From the NCBI GenBank assembly GCA_021806615.1, contig JAJZRB010000001.1, positions 143,201 through 207,200 of the forward strand: 64,000 bases of DNA, given 5' to 3'. The stretch comes from a bacterium. Its GTDB lineage: Bacteria; Patescibacteriota; Patescibacteriia; Patescibacteriales; UBA12465. Position 1 is the first letter of the stretch, and every line of letters starts with the position of its first letter. Of this stretch, positions 28 to 6,822 are shown in pieces. The notes under the pieces are model-generated. The model did not search any database. It had not been told where the DNA came from and was given only the letters and a program-made list of their open reading frames with translations. A program made the translations under genes and the position numbers.

Positions 28-801
28 TTATAAATCAGAAATTTCTAGAATGAGCGGGTAGTGGTCTGAAATTTCAATTTCTTCAACCGTCATTTTCCGA
101 GCTGACAATCCTTGGCTCAAGAATATGAAATCAATCGCCTCGCCCTTAGGCCGAGTGCTAGGAATATTAAAAATGGCATTGATGTTATTAAAATGCTTAC
201 TGATCAGAGAAATGCTTTCCGTCCTTAAAAGAACATTAAAATCTCCGAGCAGGATACTGGGCATATTTTTCTCCTGTAATCTTTCGAGAATGAATTCGCT
301 TTGCCGGATAGACCGCTCTGAATCCAGTTTATCAGCAGACCAAGTGCCGTGGACATTAGCCACTTGGATGATGCTCCCGCCGACTTCAATATCGCATATT
401 TGCAGAGCGCGGCCGTGATCGTCACCGTTATAAAAATTGGTCCGATCGCGGTCAAATTCATAATTTTTGTGATAAAAATAATTATAGCCGTGGACGATCG
501 GATATTTTGATAAGATCAGCTTGCCTTGCTCGACCATGCCGCCGAAATCTTTGTTTCTTAATCCGGATGGTTCGGTATGCTTATCAGCGACCCATTCGGG
601 AGCGAAAAAATAATAAGGATAATCTTCCCCTAATATCCGCCGAATGGTTTCTTCCGATCGATACAGAGGATGTACGTTTGGATCCAATGGACGGACGACT
701 TCCTGCAAACAGACGATATCCGCGGCTTGAGCCTTCAGATATTCGCCGACTTGCCGGCTGTTATCTATCTTAATACCAATATTAAAGCTGATGATTTTCA
801 T
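28..801 (-). CDS. endonuclease/exonuclease/phosphatase (EEP) family protein
   Basis: 257-aa ORF. The N-terminal MKIISFNI..ADIVCLQEV and C-terminal ..SDHYPL pattern is typical of the EEP/DNase I-like fold. Confidence 0.8.
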   Translation of the reverse strand: MKIISFNIGIKIDNSRQVGEYLKAQAADIVCLQEVVRPLDPNVHPLYRSEETIRRILGEDYPYYFFAPEWVADKHTEPSGLRNKDFGGMVEQGKLILSKYPIVHGYNYFYHKNYEFDRDRTNFYNGDDHGRALQICDIEVGGSIIQVANVHGTWSADKLDSERSIRQSEFILERLQEKNMPSILLGDFNVLLRTESISLISKHFNNINAIFNIPSTRPKGEAIDFIFLSQGLSARKMTVEEIEISDHYPLILEISDL

Positions 802-859
802 ATTATGGCTATTTCCCTATATTAGACTGACATAATTTATTATAGCATTCCCCTCATAC

Positions 860-880
860 AAAAACAGCCCTTTCGGACTG
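860..880 (-). terminator. hairpin plus T-run after the cupin unit
   Basis: Minus-sense CAGTCC-GAAA-GGGCTG followed by TTTTTG. It lies 12 nt downstream of element E copy 1. Confidence 0.6.
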
Positions 881-892
881 TCTCTGTTTAGT

Positions 893-920
893 GAGCTCCT
901 TTTGGAGTTTGGTTATAAAT
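893..920 (-). repeat. 28-bp element E, copy 1
   Basis: gagctccttttggagtttggttataaat, identical to copies at 1409-1436 and 3089-3116. It lies 21 nt after the cupin stop codon. Confidence 0.9.
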
Positions 921-941
921 TTAGATAAATAGAAACTAAGC

Positions 942-1295
942 TTATTCAGTTCTCTCCGTTATTTCTTTATTTGGATCATAAGCGGGGGTATGGACTAAAA
1001 ACATCTTTAATACTCCGTTTATGGATTTATAATCATATTCAATATTTTTAGGAAGAATACAGACGTCCGACTTAGCAACATGAATTATTTCGTTATTAAT
1101 TTCAAATTCGCCCTCGCCGTCGATAATATAATAAATTCTATCACTTTCTGTAGCCTTGGTTTTACCATGACTGCCAGTAACTTCGAAATAGGCAGCGCTT
1201 GCTCTAGGAAATTCTTCTTTGGAGTTGAAGGCCCACCCCTTTAAGCCATTCCAGCCGAACTCTCGCGCATTTTTAAGTGTAAATTTCATATTCAC
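942..1295 (-). CDS. cupin domain protein
   Basis: 117-aa ORF with a single beta-barrel pattern (..YFEVTGSHGKTKATESDRIYYIIDGEGEF..ILPKNIEY..) resembling small cupins. Confidence 0.6.
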   Translation of the reverse strand: MNMKFTLKNAREFGWNGLKGWAFNSKEEFPRASAAYFEVTGSHGKTKATESDRIYYIIDGEGEFEINNEIIHVAKSDVCILPKNIEYDYKSINGVLKMFLVHTPAYDPNKEITERTE

Positions 1296-1374
1296 TTTTT
1301 ATATAAATTACATTTTTATTATATCATTTGAGGTAATTTTTATAAACTTTTCAAAAAGGTGTTTCTAGAGTATC

Positions 1375-1400
1375 AAAAAATGCCCTAAGATTAAGGCATT
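1375..1400 (-). terminator. hairpin plus T-run after the 228-aa ORF
   Basis: Minus-sense AATGCC-(10 nt loop)-GGCATT followed by TTTTTT. Confidence 0.6.
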
Positions 1401-1408
1401 GTTTGTTG

Positions 1409-1436
1409 GAGCTCCTTTTGGAGTTTGGTTATAAAT
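1409..1436 (-). repeat. 28-bp element E, copy 2
   Basis: Perfect copy located 5 nt after the TAG stop of ORF 1442..2128. Confidence 0.9.
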
Positions 1437-1441
1437 TAATA

Positions 1442-2128
1442 CTATTCATAATTAAGAATTATACCTTGCCCTCCTATAACAAAACCATTTCTATTACTTA
1501 AAGTTTGCTTCTTGGGATAATCTGGAACCAAGGTACGCAACAACTCATGAGTTATCTGCCTAATTGCAGCTAATTCTGCTCCTTTCACTGGTATCCATTT
1601 ATCACTGTAATCTCTGGAAACCCAGCCCAATGAATTGCTTCTACTAAGGCTTGCATATTTTTCATTTAATTCAGGGTCTACATGAGAACCGCCGTCTTGA
1701 TTGGCTACCGCAAGGACAATATCTTTGCGACTATAGCTATTCCCCAGCTTGTCATTAAAAATTATTTCACTCCAGTAATTCTCAAAGTCTATATACCCAG
1801 TAATATCGTTGGATGAATCGAAGTTTGGCACATAACCGCCAGCGTCTCCTATGAGTAGCCCGACCAATCCTGCATACCCTCCGACTAGCTGTTGATTGTC
1901 TGAAAGTTTTGGTGGCTTTACACAAGTACTTAAGAATTTAGTATCCTTTAAATTTAACTGACCCAACAATGAGTGTGATTTAAGCGTGTCATGTAAAAGA
2001 ATCCTTATAGTCGTCGCCATTCTTTTTGATTCCGATTCAAAACCTCTATCATACGCCTGGGCGGACAACTTCAAAAATTCAATTTGATCATTTAGCTGAT
2101 TTTGGAGATCGTCTAATGTTTGTTTCAT
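1442..2128 (-). CDS. hypothetical protein (228 aa), coupled to HEPN-like paralog A
   Basis: Long ORF whose start lies 10 nt after the stop of ORF 2139..3002. No family recognised. The C-terminal ..AAIRQITHELLR.. is only Rx3H, so it is not a canonical HEPN motif. Confidence 0.6.
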   Translation of the reverse strand: MKQTLDDLQNQLNDQIEFLKLSAQAYDRGFESESKRMATTIRILLHDTLKSHSLLGQLNLKDTKFLSTCVKPPKLSDNQQLVGGYAGLVGLLIGDAGGYVPNFDSSNDITGYIDFENYWSEIIFNDKLGNSYSRKDIVLAVANQDGGSHVDPELNEKYASLSRSNSLGWVSRDYSDKWIPVKGAELAAIRQITHELLRTLVPDYPKKQTLSNRNGFVIGGQGIILNYE

Positions 2129-2138
2129 AAAACCAATA

Positions 2139-3002
2139 TTATAAACTGACGTGTGGCAAAAAATCTAAAGATATTTTTTTAAATAAAGAAAGAAGATTCC
2201 CCTTTATCATCTTGCAATATTCAAACATGTCTGTACCACTCGGTAATTGAGGATTACGTAATATTTTTTTTCTATTATCTAAAACGAAAAGTTGTAGGCT
2301 ATAGACTTTTGATCGATGGGCGACCATATTGCGTAACTTATGAACCTCATCGATCCAATTATCAATCTCTGTCTCAAAAAGATCAGCTAATTTTCTTTCT
2401 TTGACTCCTTTACTCGCTCGTAAACTGGCGATAGTCTTCTCTCCAGCTTTTTGCCCACCTCTAAATCCGATTATCCATTCCTCTCCATCAAGACATGGGT
2501 AAAATATTTTCAAAAGATGAATTAGTACATCAAGAGAAGAATATACTTGCATTAGAAAGGATTCAAACTCAAACAGAATAACGTCATTAATAAATTCAGT
2601 TTCTGATAAATTCATAGGCAATTTCTCATAAACCGGGGGGACTAAATTTTTTATTTCATTCTCAATTAGGGAAAAACTGTAATTCACGGCTTGCATTTTA
2701 TGTCGGCAGTTTTCAATAGCAATATCCAAATTGTTCATTTTTTTATTATCCTTTAATTTACGTACAAATATGCCATTTAAAATTTTTTGCTCGTCAGAAT
2801 TTAAAACTGAATCTAAATCAGACATGGTTTTATTTACCGATTTATTTAAAACTTCTTTTTCTTCATCACTAATCCTAAAACCATCCATTCCCAAGTCTAT
2901 ATCCGAAAATAAGCCTACCGACTCTCTTCTGTACTGATCAAATCTAGAATCTGATAATAAGAGCTTGTCTCTCATAATGTTATAATAACTATCTTCTGGC
3001 AT
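2139..3002 (-). CDS. HEPN-like (RNxxxH) protein, paralog A
   Basis: The track ORF 2139..3155 was trimmed to Met52 (ATG at 3002). The longer form reads through a terminator hairpin and element E, and the trimmed N-terminus (MPEDSYYNIMRDKLLLSDSRFD) aligns with paralog B (MSRYKIMKDKILFSDRRFD). Shared motifs are ENCRHK, YSxxLIENE, ExESFxxQV, AGExT and LRNMVAHRS (R-N-x3-H). Confidence 0.7.
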   Translation of the reverse strand: MPEDSYYNIMRDKLLLSDSRFDQYRRESVGLFSDIDLGMDGFRISDEEKEVLNKSVNKTMSDLDSVLNSDEQKILNGIFVRKLKDNKKMNNLDIAIENCRHKMQAVNYSFSLIENEIKNLVPPVYEKLPMNLSETEFINDVILFEFESFLMQVYSSLDVLIHLLKIFYPCLDGEEWIIGFRGGQKAGEKTIASLRASKGVKERKLADLFETEIDNWIDEVHKLRNMVAHRSKVYSLQLFVLDNRKKILRNPQLPSGTDMFEYCKMIKGNLLSLFKKISLDFLPHVSL

Positions 3003-3031
3003 ACTATTAATTTTTTTAAAAATTAAAATAC

Positions 3032-3054
3032 AAAAACCCTCATTACGAGGGTTT
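3032..3054 (-). terminator. hairpin plus T-run after HEPN-like paralog B
   Basis: Minus-sense AAACCCTC-GTAAT-GAGGGTTT followed by TTGTATTTT. It is preceded by a second perfect palindrome, GGGGGTTTATAAACCCCC (3064-3081). Confidence 0.65.
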
Positions 3055-3065
3055 CTGTAGTCTGG

Positions 3066-3092
3066 GGGTTTATAAACCCCCGTAAATGGAGC
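3066..3092. repeat. 27-bp imperfect direct repeat, distal copy (DR-L)
   Basis: gggtttataaacccccgtaaatggagc matches 6222-6248 (ggatttataaatccccctatatggagc) at 23 of 27 positions in the same orientation. Confidence 0.7.
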
Positions 3093-3116
3093 TCCTTTTG
3101 GAGTTTGGTTATAAAT
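3089..3116 (-). repeat. 28-bp element E, copy 3
   Basis: Perfect copy. It overlaps the last three codons (P-Y-L) and the TAA stop of ORF 3109..3930. Confidence 0.9.
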
Positions 3117-3930
3117 ATGGCTCGTCGGAAATCCTTTTAAGTTCTGGCGAGACAAAATTGTCTAAAATAGTCTTATATAGATTCAGTAATTTATTGTATA
3201 TATCTTGACAATATCTAAGCACTTCCGTGTTATCAGGCATTAACGGTTTAACTACTTTTCCGCTACCAGATTCATAGACAAAACACGTAAAGCCCTTAAG
3301 CGCGGATCTATGGACTATATTATTACGTAATTCATTTAAATTCTGAATCCAAGTGTCTATTTGTTCATCAAAAAATTCTGCCATTTCAGAATTACCACCT
3401 TTTCTCACGAAATCGGCGGTAGTTTCGCCCGCCCTTCTGTCGCTCTTAAAACTTGCTTTATCATTACCTCTTTCATCAATATAAGGGTACAAGTATTTTA
3501 AAAGCTGCACAATAATATCTAAATTGCCTCGCACTTGAGATACGAATGATTCAGTTTCATTTATAAGCACTTCATTCATTAACTCTGCATATGGAAACAT
3601 CTTATTTTTTATCATTTCGGAATATTCTTCTATCTCCTGTTTAGTCGGCCCAAAGTTAACTTCATTTTCAATTAAAGCTAGAGAATATCTTGCGGCAGCT
3701 AACTTGTGTCTACAATTTTCTACTCTTACTCTTATATCATCTAGTAATTTTGATATTGCGATATGCTTTCCCGTGCCCGCCTCTTTCGTTGTGCGAGGTG
3801 GCCTATAAAACCCCTCTATTGGCATATCAAAAATTTTATTAATCTCCTCATAAACTGTATCAAATCTTCTGTCCGAAAACAGTATTTTGTCTTTCATAAT
3901 TTTATAGCGGCTCATATTAGTAAAAATCAT
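3109..3930 (-). CDS. HEPN-like (RNxxxH) protein, paralog B
   Basis: 273-aa ORF, a divergent paralog of 2139..3002, with LRNNIVHRS (R-N-x3-H), ENCRHK and ETESFVSQV motifs. An alternative start is Met6 at 3915. Confidence 0.7.
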   Translation of the reverse strand: MIFTNMSRYKIMKDKILFSDRRFDTVYEEINKIFDMPIEGFYRPPRTTKEAGTGKHIAISKLLDDIRVRVENCRHKLAAARYSLALIENEVNFGPTKQEIEEYSEMIKNKMFPYAELMNEVLINETESFVSQVRGNLDIIVQLLKYLYPYIDERGNDKASFKSDRRAGETTADFVRKGGNSEMAEFFDEQIDTWIQNLNELRNNIVHRSALKGFTCFVYESGSGKVVKPLMPDNTEVLRYCQDIYNKLLNLYKTILDNFVSPELKRISDEPYL

Positions 3931-3957
3931 CTATACAATAAAAGTCAGATTCCTTAA

Positions 3958-4245
3958 CTACTTGATAAAAGGAATTTTATCTAAAATATATCTTCTTTTT
4001 CTTTCTAACTCCTCGAAAATAAATTTATTTTTTTCTTTAATCTGTAAAATGCGTCCGTCCATAATACTCTGAAGGACCGGCTTTTGCTTCTCTGCCTCTA
4101 TCGCATTGTTTAATTCCTTATACTTAATTTTTAAGTCTCTTTCAATTATAACTACTCGCACATAGGACATTACAACATGAAAAATTGCTAAAACGGCAAA
4201 TAATTTTAAAAAATAATCTACATATTTAAATACAATGGTGAGCAT
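3958..4245 (-). CDS. small membrane protein (N-terminal TM helix plus charged coiled-coil tail)
   Basis: 95-aa ORF, 27 nt upstream of paralog B and 17 nt downstream of ORF 4263..4760. It has a hydrophobic FLKLFAVLAIFHVVMSYVRVVII segment followed by a K/E-rich helix. Confidence 0.5.
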   Translation of the reverse strand: MLTIVFKYVDYFLKLFAVLAIFHVVMSYVRVVIIERDLKIKYKELNNAIEAEKQKPVLQSIMDGRILQIKEKNKFIFEELERKRRYILDKIPFIK

Positions 4246-4262
4246 ATTTCAAAAGCTAAATT

Positions 4263-4760
4263 CTAGGTTCTTTTTTGCCAAAACGCTACGATAGCTAAAA
4301 TTATTGTCCCAACTGCCATTATCCAGGTGCCGAGCACCAGCCAGAAATTCATTTTACGCTGATTTTTCAGAGAATCAATGGCAGTATATTCTGCAGTTGA
4401 TATTTCATAACCACACAAATTACAGACAACGGTGGACGGATATGATTTTTCAGAAGTTTGTACAAAGGGCATGCGCTGGATAAATTTATGCTCACATCCA
4501 TTAACCTTAGATTGATTTTTTATAATACTAATTTCTCTCACCCCGAACTCTGTTATTCTTATGGCTCCATCTTCTCCCCAAATTATTTTTCCGCTATCAG
4601 CCATTCGGCGCATAAGAGCCTTAAATTTAACCATCTGAACATAATCACCACCTTTAACAAACTGATTTTCAAGTTTAGGATAAATTTGATTAAATTGAGG
4701 GCCGACTTCTTCGTTAATAATTTTAATTTGTTCTAAAATTTGCATCTCTTTTTCTTCCAT
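4263..4760 (-). CDS. C-terminally membrane-anchored protein with a CxH...CxxC zinc-ribbon-like motif
   Basis: 165-aa ORF with ..NGCEHKF..(22 aa)..VVCNLCGYE.. and a terminal TM helix FWLVLGTWIMAVGTIILAIVAFW. No family recognised. Confidence 0.55.
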   Translation of the reverse strand: MEEKEMQILEQIKIINEEVGPQFNQIYPKLENQFVKGGDYVQMVKFKALMRRMADSGKIIWGEDGAIRITEFGVREISIIKNQSKVNGCEHKFIQRMPFVQTSEKSYPSTVVCNLCGYEISTAEYTAIDSLKNQRKMNFWLVLGTWIMAVGTIILAIVAFWQKRT

Positions 4761-4820
4761 ATTTATAAACAGATTAACGCTTAAATTATTTTGATGTACT
4801 TATATCATCCCAATCATCGG

Positions 4821-5276
4821 TTATTTGCCACTTGGGTTATTATCTAATATTTTATAGGACAAATTTACATCCAACGGTGTCTCCGAAGCAACTTCAAATT
4901 TAGTACCTTTTTTTTGTAATATTCTATAGTAATATCTCCCACCCTCGGTTATCTGTATGCCCTGCATGTTTGTTATACTTCTTAATCTCTTTTCACCTTT
5001 TTTTGCCTTTAGGCCAACGGAAAATTCATTTAAAACTTCTCCCTTAGGATCCACGAGATCTATCTTTATTTCAGCTAAATTTTCCCTTGTATCGTCTTCG
5101 ATAGTCCAAAAACTAATAAGCTGAAGATTAAAAGGAATAACTAGCTTATCATTTTTAGACATCTTTTTCCTATCAATCATTAACTGCACTTCTTCAATAC
5201 AGTTAAATAAACTAAGGAGATTGGTTTGAGCATCTATTGATGATTTTTCACAAATTATTGACCAAATGTTTTTCAT
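4821..5276 (-). CDS. hypothetical protein (151 aa, predicted all-beta)
   Basis: ORF starting 11 nt after the XRE gene stop. No motif recognised. Confidence 0.5.
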   Translation of the reverse strand: MKNIWSIICEKSSIDAQTNLLSLFNCIEEVQLMIDRKKMSKNDKLVIPFNLQLISFWTIEDDTRENLAEIKIDLVDPKGEVLNEFSVGLKAKKGEKRLRSITNMQGIQITEGGRYYYRILQKKGTKFEVASETPLDVNLSYKILDNNPSGK

Positions 5277-5287
5277 ATTTTTATTAT

Positions 5288-5698
5288 TTATTTAGTAGAT
5301 ATATTATAAGCCTCATGCGATAAAACGTTGTCCCTTAATCTATCAGCGGTGTTATTTATCGTCCCACCGCCTGCGAATATAATGTTATATGGGATATTAA
5401 AATCTAAAATACTACTCCAGCTTTTATAACTAAAATTTAAAACACTTGCTATTCGATTAAGCAGTGCAAAACCAATATTAACATCTCCGCTCTCAACTCT
5501 TGAAATAACCTTCTGAGTCGTTTGAGCTTCTTTAGCTAACTTTTGCTGACTCATACCAAGAGCTTCTCTGGTATTATAAATCTCAACTCCCAACCTTATT
5601 CTTTCCATTGCTTCTCTTGAAAATTTTTCAAAATACTTACCCTTTCTGGCCTCTGCCATCGGATCAATATTTAATTTTTTGTTATTCATATTTTTCAT
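5288..5698 (-). CDS. XRE-family helix-turn-helix protein (HigA-like antitoxin candidate)
   Basis: 136-aa ORF. The HTH_3-type segment is ..LGMSQQKLAKEAQTTQKVISRVESGDVNIGFALLNRIA... It overlaps the upstream toxin-like gene by 17 nt. Confidence 0.75.
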   Translation of the reverse strand: MKNMNNKKLNIDPMAEARKGKYFEKFSREAMERIRLGVEIYNTREALGMSQQKLAKEAQTTQKVISRVESGDVNIGFALLNRIASVLNFSYKSWSSILDFNIPYNIIFAGGGTINNTADRLRDNVLSHEAYNISTK

Positions 5699-6107
5699 AA
5701 TTTTTTGGATTTAATTTAAAAATATTTAAATACTTCTCACCAATCTTGTTTTGTTTATCAACTTTTTTCTTCTCTCTGTCGGTATCATAATTGACAGGCT
5801 TCTCAAAAGCATGAAGAAGAACTATTTTTTCTTGATGTCGAAAATAAAGAATTCTAATAACTGTTGTTTCGTCTTTGGGATTCAATATTTCAAAACAACT
5901 ATAGCCATGTAATGGTTTAGAAATTGGAGGAGTCGGCCTACCTTCGTTGCCCTTAACATGCTGTATCTTAGCATCTATATTAGCTAGTATTTTCTGCTTT
6001 CTTTTAACAACTGCTTCTTTATCTCCTTTGTTTTCTCGATATTGTTTTAAATATTCCTTTACCGGGCAGTTTTTTGAACCTTTATCATAAAAATAAACAG
6101 GTTCCAT
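5682..6107 (-). CDS. RelE/HigB-like toxin of the Gp49 (DUF891) type
   Basis: 141-aa ORF. ..PVKEYL..AKIQHV..KPLHGYSCFEI..IRILYFRHQEKIVLLHAFEK.. follows the Gp49/RelE pattern. The toxin-first order matches higBA-type pairs. Confidence 0.7.
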   Translation of the reverse strand: MEPVYFYDKGSKNCPVKEYLKQYRENKGDKEAVVKRKQKILANIDAKIQHVKGNEGRPTPPISKPLHGYSCFEILNPKDETTVIRILYFRHQEKIVLLHAFEKPVNYDTDREKKKVDKQNKIGEKYLNIFKLNPKNYEKYE

Positions 6108-6136
6108 ATTTACATGATTAAATTGATTCTAACCTT

Positions 6137-6164
6137 ATTATATCCTATTGGATATAATTGTCAA
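6137..6164 (-). promoter_or_regulatory. near-consensus sigma70-type promoter with an embedded palindromic operator
   Basis: Minus-sense TTGACA (6164-6159), a 16-nt spacer, then TATAAT (6142-6137). A perfect inverted repeat TTATATCC-n4-GGATATAA (6138-6157) spans the spacer and the -10 element. Confidence 0.7.
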
Positions 6165-6172
6165 TACCAATT

Positions 6173-6200
6173 ACAAAAGCCCTCCCAAAATGGGAAGGCT
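6173..6200 (-). terminator. terminator of the tmRNA/tRNA-Leu/tRNA-Gly unit
   Basis: Minus-sense AGCCTTCCC-ATTTT-GGGAGGGCT (9-bp stem including one G-U pair) followed by TTTTG. Confidence 0.75.
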
Positions 6201-6221
6201 CTTGTAAACACTGGGACTTAT

Positions 6222-6248
6222 GGATTTATAAATCCCCCTATATGGAGC
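6222..6248. repeat. 27-bp imperfect direct repeat, tRNA-proximal copy (DR-R)
   Basis: It matches 3066-3092 at 23 of 27 positions. Positions 6243-6248 are the GCTCCA 3' terminus of tRNA-Gly. Confidence 0.7.
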
Positions 6249-6317
6249 GGGTAACGGGAATTGAACCCGTCTCTCGACCTTGGCAAGGTCGCATAATAGC
6301 CACTATACGATACCCGC
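6243..6317 (-). tRNA. tRNA-Gly(GCC), CCA encoded
   Basis: Hand-folded cloverleaf with acceptor GCGGGTA/TACCCGC, anticodon arm CGACC-TTGCCAA-GGTCG and T arm ACGGG-TTCAATT-CCCGT. Confidence 0.9.
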
Positions 6318-6420: not shown

Positions 6421-6433
6421 TCTTTTGTCAATG

Positions 6434-6822
6434 TGGAGATGATGGGAGTTGAACCCATGTCCAGCCGGCTTACCTAAATACATTTACAAGATTAGGCCGA
6501 TTTCGTTTGTTTTAACTTTAATCATCAAAACCGGACGAAAAGCGACTAAAGCGATCTTTCTTTTGTTTCGACATACCCCGGAAAGAGCAAAATATATCTA
6601 TCCTCATGTTTATGACACCGGAAATGCGACTATGAAGACTCATCGCGCCCGATGGTTACGGCTTATTTTTATTAGGCCATAACTGGAGCATAGCTCGGAG
6701 TTAACCAAGTAAATGCTCTTGCCATAGATTTGGCATTTGTGTTTTTTTAGCCAGTTTGGCGTGATGACTAAGCACGTCCTGAATATTTAGATAGAATCCA
6801 GCTGTCGATTCCTTTCATCCCC
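6434..6822 (-). ncRNA. ssrA: tmRNA
   Basis: The 5' GGGGATG pairs with the 3' CATCTCC and includes G3-U70. The T arm is ATGGG-TTCAACT-CCCAT with discriminator A. An internal reading frame ends in TAATAA. It lies 26 nt downstream of smpB. Confidence 0.85.

Follow-up and report, generated by a model that had tools for sequence, protein, structure and literature searches.

A HEPN-like gene and a member of a widespread SEC-C-associated family share a two-gene cassette in a low-GC island of a Patescibacteriota genome

Introduction

HEPN genes located inside restriction-modification (R-M) operons have been described as second-line suicide nucleases (PMC3710099). In type III systems of the AbiF/AbiV kind, the antitoxin is a repeat-containing non-coding RNA (ncRNA) encoded upstream of the toxin gene (PMC13064643). 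The abortive infection (Abi)-like protein Rugutis, encoded on the Lactococcus lactis plasmid pUCCL633A, is a validated single-gene antiphage determinant in which a SEC-C motif is combined with a domain of novel fold (PMC11381338). Here we analyse a 64,000-nucleotide (nt) stretch of a bacterial genome assigned to Patescibacteriota (UBA12465; GenBank assembly GCA_021806615.1, contig JAJZRB010000001.1, positions 143,201 to 207,200 of the forward strand), referred to as the window, in which two adjacent open reading frames (ORFs) code for a HEPN-like protein of 287 amino acids (aa), HEPN A, and for a protein of 228 aa. The two genes form a compact cassette; their families, in contrast, were not found together at any other locus surveyed.

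The cassette shares features with several of the described systems and departs from each of them. Like AbiD/AbiF (Pfam Abi_2) and the Cthe_2314-like HEPN proteins, HEPN A is a single protein of ~280 aa with the RNxxxH motif in its C-terminal half, but it scores below the curated cut-offs for AbiD/AbiF, and an N-terminal beta-hairpin/DxRFD segment together with an ENCRHK motif is specific to its clade. The ncRNA antitoxin that characterises the type III AbiF/AbiV kind was not found upstream of HEPN A: Tandem Repeats Finder detected no repeat array in 700-6300, and this possibility was therefore rejected. The tight coupling of a HEPN gene to a second small gene recalls the HEPN-MNT pairs of types II and VII, from which the locus differs in that its second protein is no nucleotidyltransferase, conservation of the pair is lacking, and gene order and sizes are different. 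In common with PrrC/RloC and similar ORFs linked to restriction, both genes have relatives in the hsdS-X-hsdR slot (L004, L006 and L007 for the 228-aa family; the HEPN A homologue P0102 in L089), and one 228-aa relative directly follows an RloB-like gene; however, the window proteins lack the ABC-ATPase N-domain of PrrC/RloC, and no R-M genes are present in the island that carries them.

The 228-aa family follows the same logic as Rugutis, with a SEC-C knuckle fused to a domain that has no neighbour in the PDB, but in Rugutis the knuckle is N-terminal, and the window 228-aa protein has none. Rugutis is a member of neither family, as its SEC-C part alone aligns and the cores are not homologous. 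The plasmid pUCCL633A carries both Rugutis and a homologue of the 228-aa protein, itself 294 aa long, 6.3 kb apart. The C-terminus of relatives of the 228-aa protein is a canonical SEC-C motif like those of the SecA C-terminal metal-binding domain, YecA and YchJ; this likeness is limited to ~22-40 residues, the core being unrelated and the window copy tail-less.

Results

Two adjacent genes whose families do not co-occur elsewhere

The two minus-strand ORFs are separated by a gap of exactly 10 nt, and they are bordered on both sides by copies of a 27-nt repeat, element E, and by terminators, so that they constitute a discrete unit with an E-to-E period of 1680 bp. On all these points an earlier, sequence-only reading of the locus was confirmed. 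Both ORFs are regarded as real genes on the strength of their homologues elsewhere, the best E-values being 1e-90 and 1e-107. The start of HEPN A is the ATG at 3002, eight homologues aligning from residue 1, and a longer TTG start at 3155 was discarded, since it would cross element E and two hairpins. The absence of a Shine-Dalgarno sequence from the 10-nt spacer is compatible with co-transcription and coupled translation of HEPN A and the 228-aa gene. On the upstream side, the RNA of the intergenic region 3003-3125 folds with z = -5.6, and the hairpins located there insulate the cassette from the preceding gene, HEPN B.

From this layout, the sequence-only reading had proposed a dedicated toxin-antitoxin (TA) module made of a HEPN protein and its partner. 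When every ORF in 80 genome loci of the 228-aa family was searched by phmmer with HEPN A and HEPN B, zero matches were obtained at E <= 10. With the higher sensitivity of profiles, hidden Markov models (HMMs) of the HEPN-A superfamily had no match (E <= 1) either in the 89 loci of the 228-aa family taken from genomes, metagenomes, phages and plasmids, a count that leaves out the window's own duplicate contig, or in the 73 IMG/VR loci of the family. Reciprocally, the HMM of the 228-aa family had no match in the 6 loci of HEPN-A homologues, which brings co-occurrence to 0 of 162 and 0 of 6 loci. A 225-aa gene downstream of the HEPN A homologue P0101, considered as a possible second pair, turned out to be unrelated to the 228-aa protein, and no family recurs as a neighbour of the 228-aa genes, save among closely related loci. 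The pairing of HEPN A with the 228-aa family is thus unique to this window, and by every test run the two genes are no conserved two-gene module. The sequence-only reading had itself stated that the two genes never occurring together elsewhere would speak against its proposal; because that is what was found, a TA module of the "HEPN plus partner" type is unsupported.

The 228-aa protein represents a sporadic but conserved family

The 228-aa protein had been presented earlier as unknown and with no motif that could be placed. It is not an orphan and belongs to a conserved, usually solitary family for which a SEC-C tail is normal. The search returned 95 homologues at E <= 1e-20, and the protein matches phrog_7805 over residues 2-200 (1.2e-46). 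The family is distributed sporadically, with 112 matches, spread over many phyla and two archaea, among 185,579 species genomes, and relatives are also present in 73 IMG/VR contigs, 9 phage records and 23 plasmid records. Six residues are invariant (W119, R134, D145, G146, G147 and H149), all of them present in the window copy, and a further six (D27, R42, H46, R190, Q191 and E195) are nearly so. The three stretches that the earlier reading had quoted, the G-rich GGYAGLVGLLIGDAGGYV, DGGSHVD and IRQITHE, are all found in the protein. The view that none of its motifs could be placed does not hold for DGGxH, which is an invariant signature of the family; the G-rich stretch is present but not conserved.

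A C-terminal SEC-C motif occurs in 71 of the 95 members (75%). The window copy is devoid of it and stops 6 nt before element E copy 2, at the point where its relatives run on into a SEC-C tail of ~33 aa. In SecA, the SEC-C motif binds SecB or ribosomes; by analogy, the knuckle appended to the 228-aa relatives may therefore act as a targeting or sensing module.

Outside this tail, the family has no counterpart in the domain collections that were searched. Pfam, run over all 95 members, identified SEC-C alone and offered no model for the core; the window protein had no match in Pfam, NCBIfam or PADLOC, nucleotidyltransferases included; and a search of the PDB with the sequence profile of the family matched the SEC-C tails alone (SecA, YchJ, 2i9w). 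An AlphaFold2 model of the window protein was obtained with a predicted local distance difference test (pLDDT) score of 93.8 and a predicted template modelling (pTM) score of 0.92. It displays long helices at residues 5-27, 33-45, 134-144 and 184-200 together with a beta-sheet insert, and on this model the core is a helical bundle with a beta-sheet insert. Foldseek found no PDB match for it with E <1; AbiV (HEPN) chains, listed at E 6-10 with a probability <0.1, were judged to be noise. The BFVD search returned one uncharacterised Gordonia phage homologue and nothing else. The polar cluster formed by R42/H46/D47, R134, D145-G-G-x-H149-x-D151 and R190/Q191/E195 could constitute a hydrolytic or ligand-binding site. 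Hidden homology between the 228-aa and the HEPN A families was also considered, and hhalign showed none beyond SEC-C.

Both families are solitary guests of restriction and mobile-element neighbourhoods

In a Pfam census of 150 immediate neighbours of the 228-aa homologues, Methylase_S, Phage_integrase and HTH_3 lead, and HSDR_N, nSTAND3 and Mrr_cat are present. Besides the three loci between hsdS and hsdR mentioned above, the family was found between hsdM and hsdR (L005), behind hsdR-M-S on the Lactococcus plasmid pNCDO184J, where the homologue is 269 aa long, and in a locus with an hsdS-like fragment upstream and nothing more of R-M (L010). The relative associated with the RloB-like gene lies 26 nt after it, another is placed beside a Type ISP enzyme, and another near AbiEii. 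On the Pseudomonas aeruginosa megaplasmid pPUV-9, the homologue is flanked by a metallophosphoesterase/ATPase pair on one side and an ABC-3C system on the other; on 6-kb Lactiplantibacillus plasmids it is the lone cargo gene, next to an integrase; and in the phages J-1 (where it is gp25), JuJu and BrayBeast it occupies lysogeny or moron slots. A tyrosine integrase lies <400 nt from the homologue in 26 of the 73 IMG/VR contigs (L108-L180), usually at the contig end. In most cases the integrase gene follows the homologue on its strand at the end of the prophage, giving the gene-int-att order of Lactobacillus phage J-1.

The HEPN A homologues show comparable contexts. In addition to P0102 in its hsdS-hsdR slot, P0100 is found 15 nt behind an MmeI-type enzyme gene and another homologue behind pyrH, and the nearest one (64% identity) has a promoter-like region upstream and non-coding DNA downstream. 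Homologues lie 5-15 nt behind other genes; upstream of HEPN A itself there are element E and two terminator hairpins alone. Since these contexts correspond to R-M operons, defence genes and mobile elements, both families are solitary guests of restriction and mobile-element neighbourhoods, a niche that matches that of the HEPN nucleases PrrC/RloC and of the single-gene Abi-like Rugutis.

HEPN A and HEPN B as a putative new HEPN clade

The assignment of the 287-aa protein as HEPN-like, and as a paralogue of the gene upstream, withstood the analysis. BLASTP aligned HEPN B to HEPN A with 32% identity (E 3e-40), and the RNNIVH motif of the former falls on R224/N225/H229 of the latter. PADLOC AbiD matched HEPN A at 4.3e-5 over the motif region (residues 197-267), and Pfam Abi_2 matched the same residues with an E-value of 1.3e-3, at 19.5 bits vs a cut-off of 25.6. 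Close homologues are rare, 8 among 5.8 billion proteins, and both R224-N225-x3-H229 and the ENCRHK motif are invariant across the resulting clade of 10 sequences. A profile search with the HEPN A family retrieved 173 relatives among 1.84 billion representatives; across 149 of these profile relatives, R224 and H229 are at least 90% conserved, 7 match HEPN_Cthe2314 (PF18730; best 2.7e-6) and 3 match HEPN_Apea. On these sequence data, HEPN A and HEPN B appear to define a new HEPN clade of small size in which RNxxxH is invariant. HEPN B, whose stop codon falls within element E copy 3, is the older paralogue and closes the older part of the island.

The AlphaFold2 model of HEPN A is all-alpha, with long helices and a pLDDT of 78. 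Foldseek yielded no PDB match for it with E <0.3, a HEPN-MNT chain appearing at E 4, and a sequence search of the PDB with the 287-aa protein gave no significant match. The structural comparison suggested by the sequence-only reading was thus carried out for both proteins, and neither has a significant PDB neighbour. It is reasonable, on motif and profile evidence, to accept the 287-aa protein as HEPN-like.

A SEC-C zinc knuckle is carried by 30 of the 149 distant HEPN-A relatives (P0125-P0231) and, in 22 of the 23 located by motif scan, it is N-terminal, near residue 10; HEPN A itself is devoid of it. The SEC-C module recurs in the HEPN-A relatives, in the unrelated 228-aa family (at the C-terminus), in Rugutis and in the PADLOC models PDC-S12 and E2. 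Matches to these two models cover the SEC-C residues alone and were not taken as evidence of a known system.

Close relatives of the 228-aa gene coupled to secA

In Patescibacteria, four of the nearest relatives of the 228-aa protein (P0003, P0005, P0008 and P0009; 58-65% identity) are encoded immediately 3' of secA. In L085 (region 1080-1135) the two reading frames share 11 nt; in the other loci they are 1, 7 and 14 nt apart. The synteny murB-hpf-secA-X-NUDIX-secDF is shared by L081 and L082, and in L001 and L085 the relative also comes directly after secA. Other close relatives (P0002, P0006 and P0007) are away from secA, and there is no secA within the 64-kb window.

In two of these loci the SEC-C tail resembles that of the adjacent SecA. 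In L001 (tails compared at 5868-5987 vs 6694-6813), the tail has in common with its own SecA tail an extension past the SEC-C motif, CGLINSxEHQxNLAK; in L081 (4880-4999 vs 5724-5843), it shares a linker before the motif, IKxKxRTAEGEK, with ~80% nucleotide identity to the SecA tail over 135 nt. In an identity matrix of tails, the values against the self SecA reach 26/40 in L001 and 31/40 in L081, and those against any other tail are <=22; no such self-match was seen in L082. The tail is therefore a copy of the neighbouring SecA tail in 2 of the 3 tailed secA-adjacent relatives. Because these tails match that of their own SecA more than any other, the SecA tail seems to have undergone local duplication or gene conversion in L001 and L081.

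Element E and the surrounding island

The features of the cassette and its surroundings are listed in Table 1. Element E is the 27-nt motif TTTATAACCAAACTCCAAAAGGAGCTC, of which the 64 kb contain three exact copies, all on the minus strand and with zero mismatches; shuffled sequence is expected to contain none. A stop codon (of the cupin, 228-aa and HEPN B genes) precedes each copy by 0-22 nt, and a different terminator hairpin follows each. The 22-nt core of the element was detected in two related metagenome contigs only (L094, 4584-4605; L095, 2421-2442) and in no viral contig. The element is invariant in five copies over three genomes, and its placement 0-22 nt past a stop codon and ahead of a terminator hairpin holds for all of them. 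Both contigs exhibit the same tig-smpB-tmRNA synteny as the window with different cargo. Because element E and the flank of window copy 1 mark the distal border there too, it is a conserved border element of a hypervariable island. The cargo consists of a 431-aa ATPase-like ORF in one contig and a 121-aa membrane ORF in the other. Compared with them, the window has two extra E-bounded inserts, namely the pair described here and a single cupin gene (516 bp from copy 2 to copy 1). This 117-aa cupin is unrelated to the cupin encoded near the 228-aa homologue of pUCCL633A.

The island yielded no gene for a recombinase or an integrase. By inspection, element E has no RYYYAAC/GTTRRRY core-site pair of the kind that defines an integron attC. 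An att duplicate of a tRNA 3' end and a known RNA were likewise rejected, the element being unlike the 3' ends of the adjacent tRNA genes and without a match in Rfam.

Table 1. Positions of the cassette genes, of element E and of neighbouring features in the window
Feature	Positions	Strand	Description
HEPN B	3109..3930	-	273 aa with the ATG at 3930 as start; 262 aa in public gene calls, which use a later ATG
Element E copy 3	3089..3115	-	upstream border of the cassette; contains the final two codons and the stop codon of HEPN B
Two hairpins after element E copy 3	3029..3081	-	GGGGGTTTATAAACCCCC at 3081-3064 and an intrinsic terminator at 3059-3029
HEPN A	2139..3002	-	287 aa; predicted HEPN-superfamily RNase (R224-N-M-V-A-H229)
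Spacer	2129..2138	-	10 nt, 'tattggtttt', from the HEPN A stop (TAA 2141-2139) to the 228-aa ATG at 2128
228-aa gene	1442..2128	-	tail-less member of the 'W..R..DGGxH' family (phrog_7805); core domain complete
Element E copy 2	1409..1435	-	begins 6 nt past the 228-aa stop; downstream border of the cassette
Intrinsic terminator after element E copy 2	1379..1400	-	terminator-like hairpin
Next E-bounded insert	893..1295	-	117-aa cupin gene (942-1295), then element E copy 1 (893-919) and a terminator

The island extends over 6.2 kb from the beginning of the window and carries genes on the minus strand only; its GC content, 31-36% vs ~44% elsewhere, points to a horizontal origin. It lies 3' of a cluster formed by tRNA-Gly (6243-6317), tRNA-Leu, tmRNA (6433-6822, minus strand), smpB and tig. 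ARAGORN assigns to the tmRNA the tag peptide AKSMARAFTWLTPSYAPVMA, which is unusually long and does not have the usual LAA ending. At the tRNA-proximal end of the island (5288-6107, minus strand), a Gp49/HigB-like gene (141 aa) overlaps an HTH_3 gene (136 aa), and the two are a probable type II TA pair. Three small genes with no confident family are located upstream of HEPN B (3958-5276, minus strand) and may belong with it; their 95-aa and 165-aa products contain hydrophobic segments, and the 151-aa product matches DUF6941 weakly.

Discussion

On balance, we incline, with some reservation, to the reading that HEPN A and the 228-aa gene are two independent defence-type genes, stacked by cassette accretion and co-transcribed between two terminators. 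Accretion within a low-GC hypervariable island 3' of the tmRNA/tRNA-Leu/tRNA-Gly cluster would have placed one gene behind the other; HEPN A would dimerise to form a composite R..H active site and, once triggered, would cleave cellular or phage RNA, with growth arrest as the outcome. The defence role, the RNase activity and the function of the 228-aa core are predictions at this stage. Several observations weigh against this reading. The defence role is drawn from genomic context alone, and the HEPN fold of the 287-aa protein lacks confirmation by Foldseek. Four close relatives of the 228-aa protein show translational coupling to secA, a housekeeping gene, which is odd for a suicide effector. 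In addition, the 10-nt gap, the shared transcription unit and the shared E-bounded segment would also fit a true two-gene module, and both window proteins are devoid of the SEC-C found on many of their relatives, so that they could be interdependent in this lineage.

These last features are those expected if the cassette were a lineage-specific, recently assembled TA or Abi module with HEPN A as the RNase toxin and the 228-aa protein as antitoxin or sensor, or the reverse: no terminator separates the genes, both are enclosed by the same two terminators and the same copies of element E, both lack the SEC-C module seen among their relatives, and adjacent partners are common for HEPN toxins (PMC3710099). 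Such a module is nonetheless unlikely given the complete absence of co-occurrence at profile sensitivity, a partner with no MNT/nucleotidyltransferase or other known antitoxin domain, and close HEPN A homologues that follow unrelated genes at 5-15 nt and lack such a partner downstream. The 228-aa family, moreover, holds an enzyme-like invariant cluster and travels as lone cargo on small plasmids. The tight junctions of the four relatives directly 3' of secA, the synteny conserved in L081 and L082, and the tails of L001 and L081, closest to those of their own SecA, could alternatively mean that in Patescibacteria the family is primarily a SecA-associated accessory factor. The window would then hold a displaced paralogue, devoid of a tail and of any part in defence, next to HEPN A by accident. 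We consider this improbable in view of the sporadic spread of the family over many phyla (112 of 185,579 species genomes), its frequency in prophages, plasmids, R-M operons and defence islands, the three close relatives that are not near secA, and the position of the window copy in a low-GC island with no secA in the 64 kb.

The copying of the SecA tail feeds not only the accessory-factor explanation but also a further, joint reading, which we regard as quite unlikely. According to it, the 228-aa family would be a defence effector of new fold whose SEC-C tail is an integrated decoy of the C-terminal zinc finger of the host SecA; the SEC-C knuckles of Rugutis, PDC-S12, the HEPN-A relatives and the 228-aa family would mark guards that sense attack on SecA or the ribosome; and the tail-less window copy would have been rewired to a HEPN RNase as a lineage-specific two-component system. 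A decoy kept similar by local duplication or gene conversion would explain why secA-coupled copies match their own SecA. Very unlikely, in turn, is the idea that the genes are mainly addiction-type cargo stabilising an integron-like or att-like cassette, with element E as the recombination site that captured both. The three exact copies, each after a stop codon and each with a different terminator hairpin, the distal border shared with an equivalent island of different cargo in two metagenome contigs, and a 228-aa gene that ends at element E where its relatives enter the SEC-C tail would agree with it. However, genes for a recombinase or an integrase were not seen in the island, the element has no attC-like core sites, and it was found in three genomes only and in no viral contig; besides, this explanation concerns the route of arrival and does not conflict with the genes being defence genes, as in the reading of two stacked, functionally independent genes that we prefer.

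The analysis removes a plausible-looking toxin-antitoxin call as unsupported and, at the same time, flags a widespread unannotated family, with members in no fewer than 112 species genomes, 73 viral contigs and 23 plasmids, for which there is no Pfam model or PDB structural neighbour. The repeated presence of this family in defence slots, including the hsdS-hsdR position, the integrase side of prophages and plasmid defence islands, together with the modelled structure of its core, makes it a candidate defence family with a new fold. Homologues in culturable hosts (Lactococcus plasmids, the L. casei phage J-1 and P. aeruginosa megaplasmids) make the predicted anti-phage role testable. Finally, the recurrence of SEC-C and the copies of the SecA tail raise a possible, not yet described link between the Sec/ribosome interface and phage defence.

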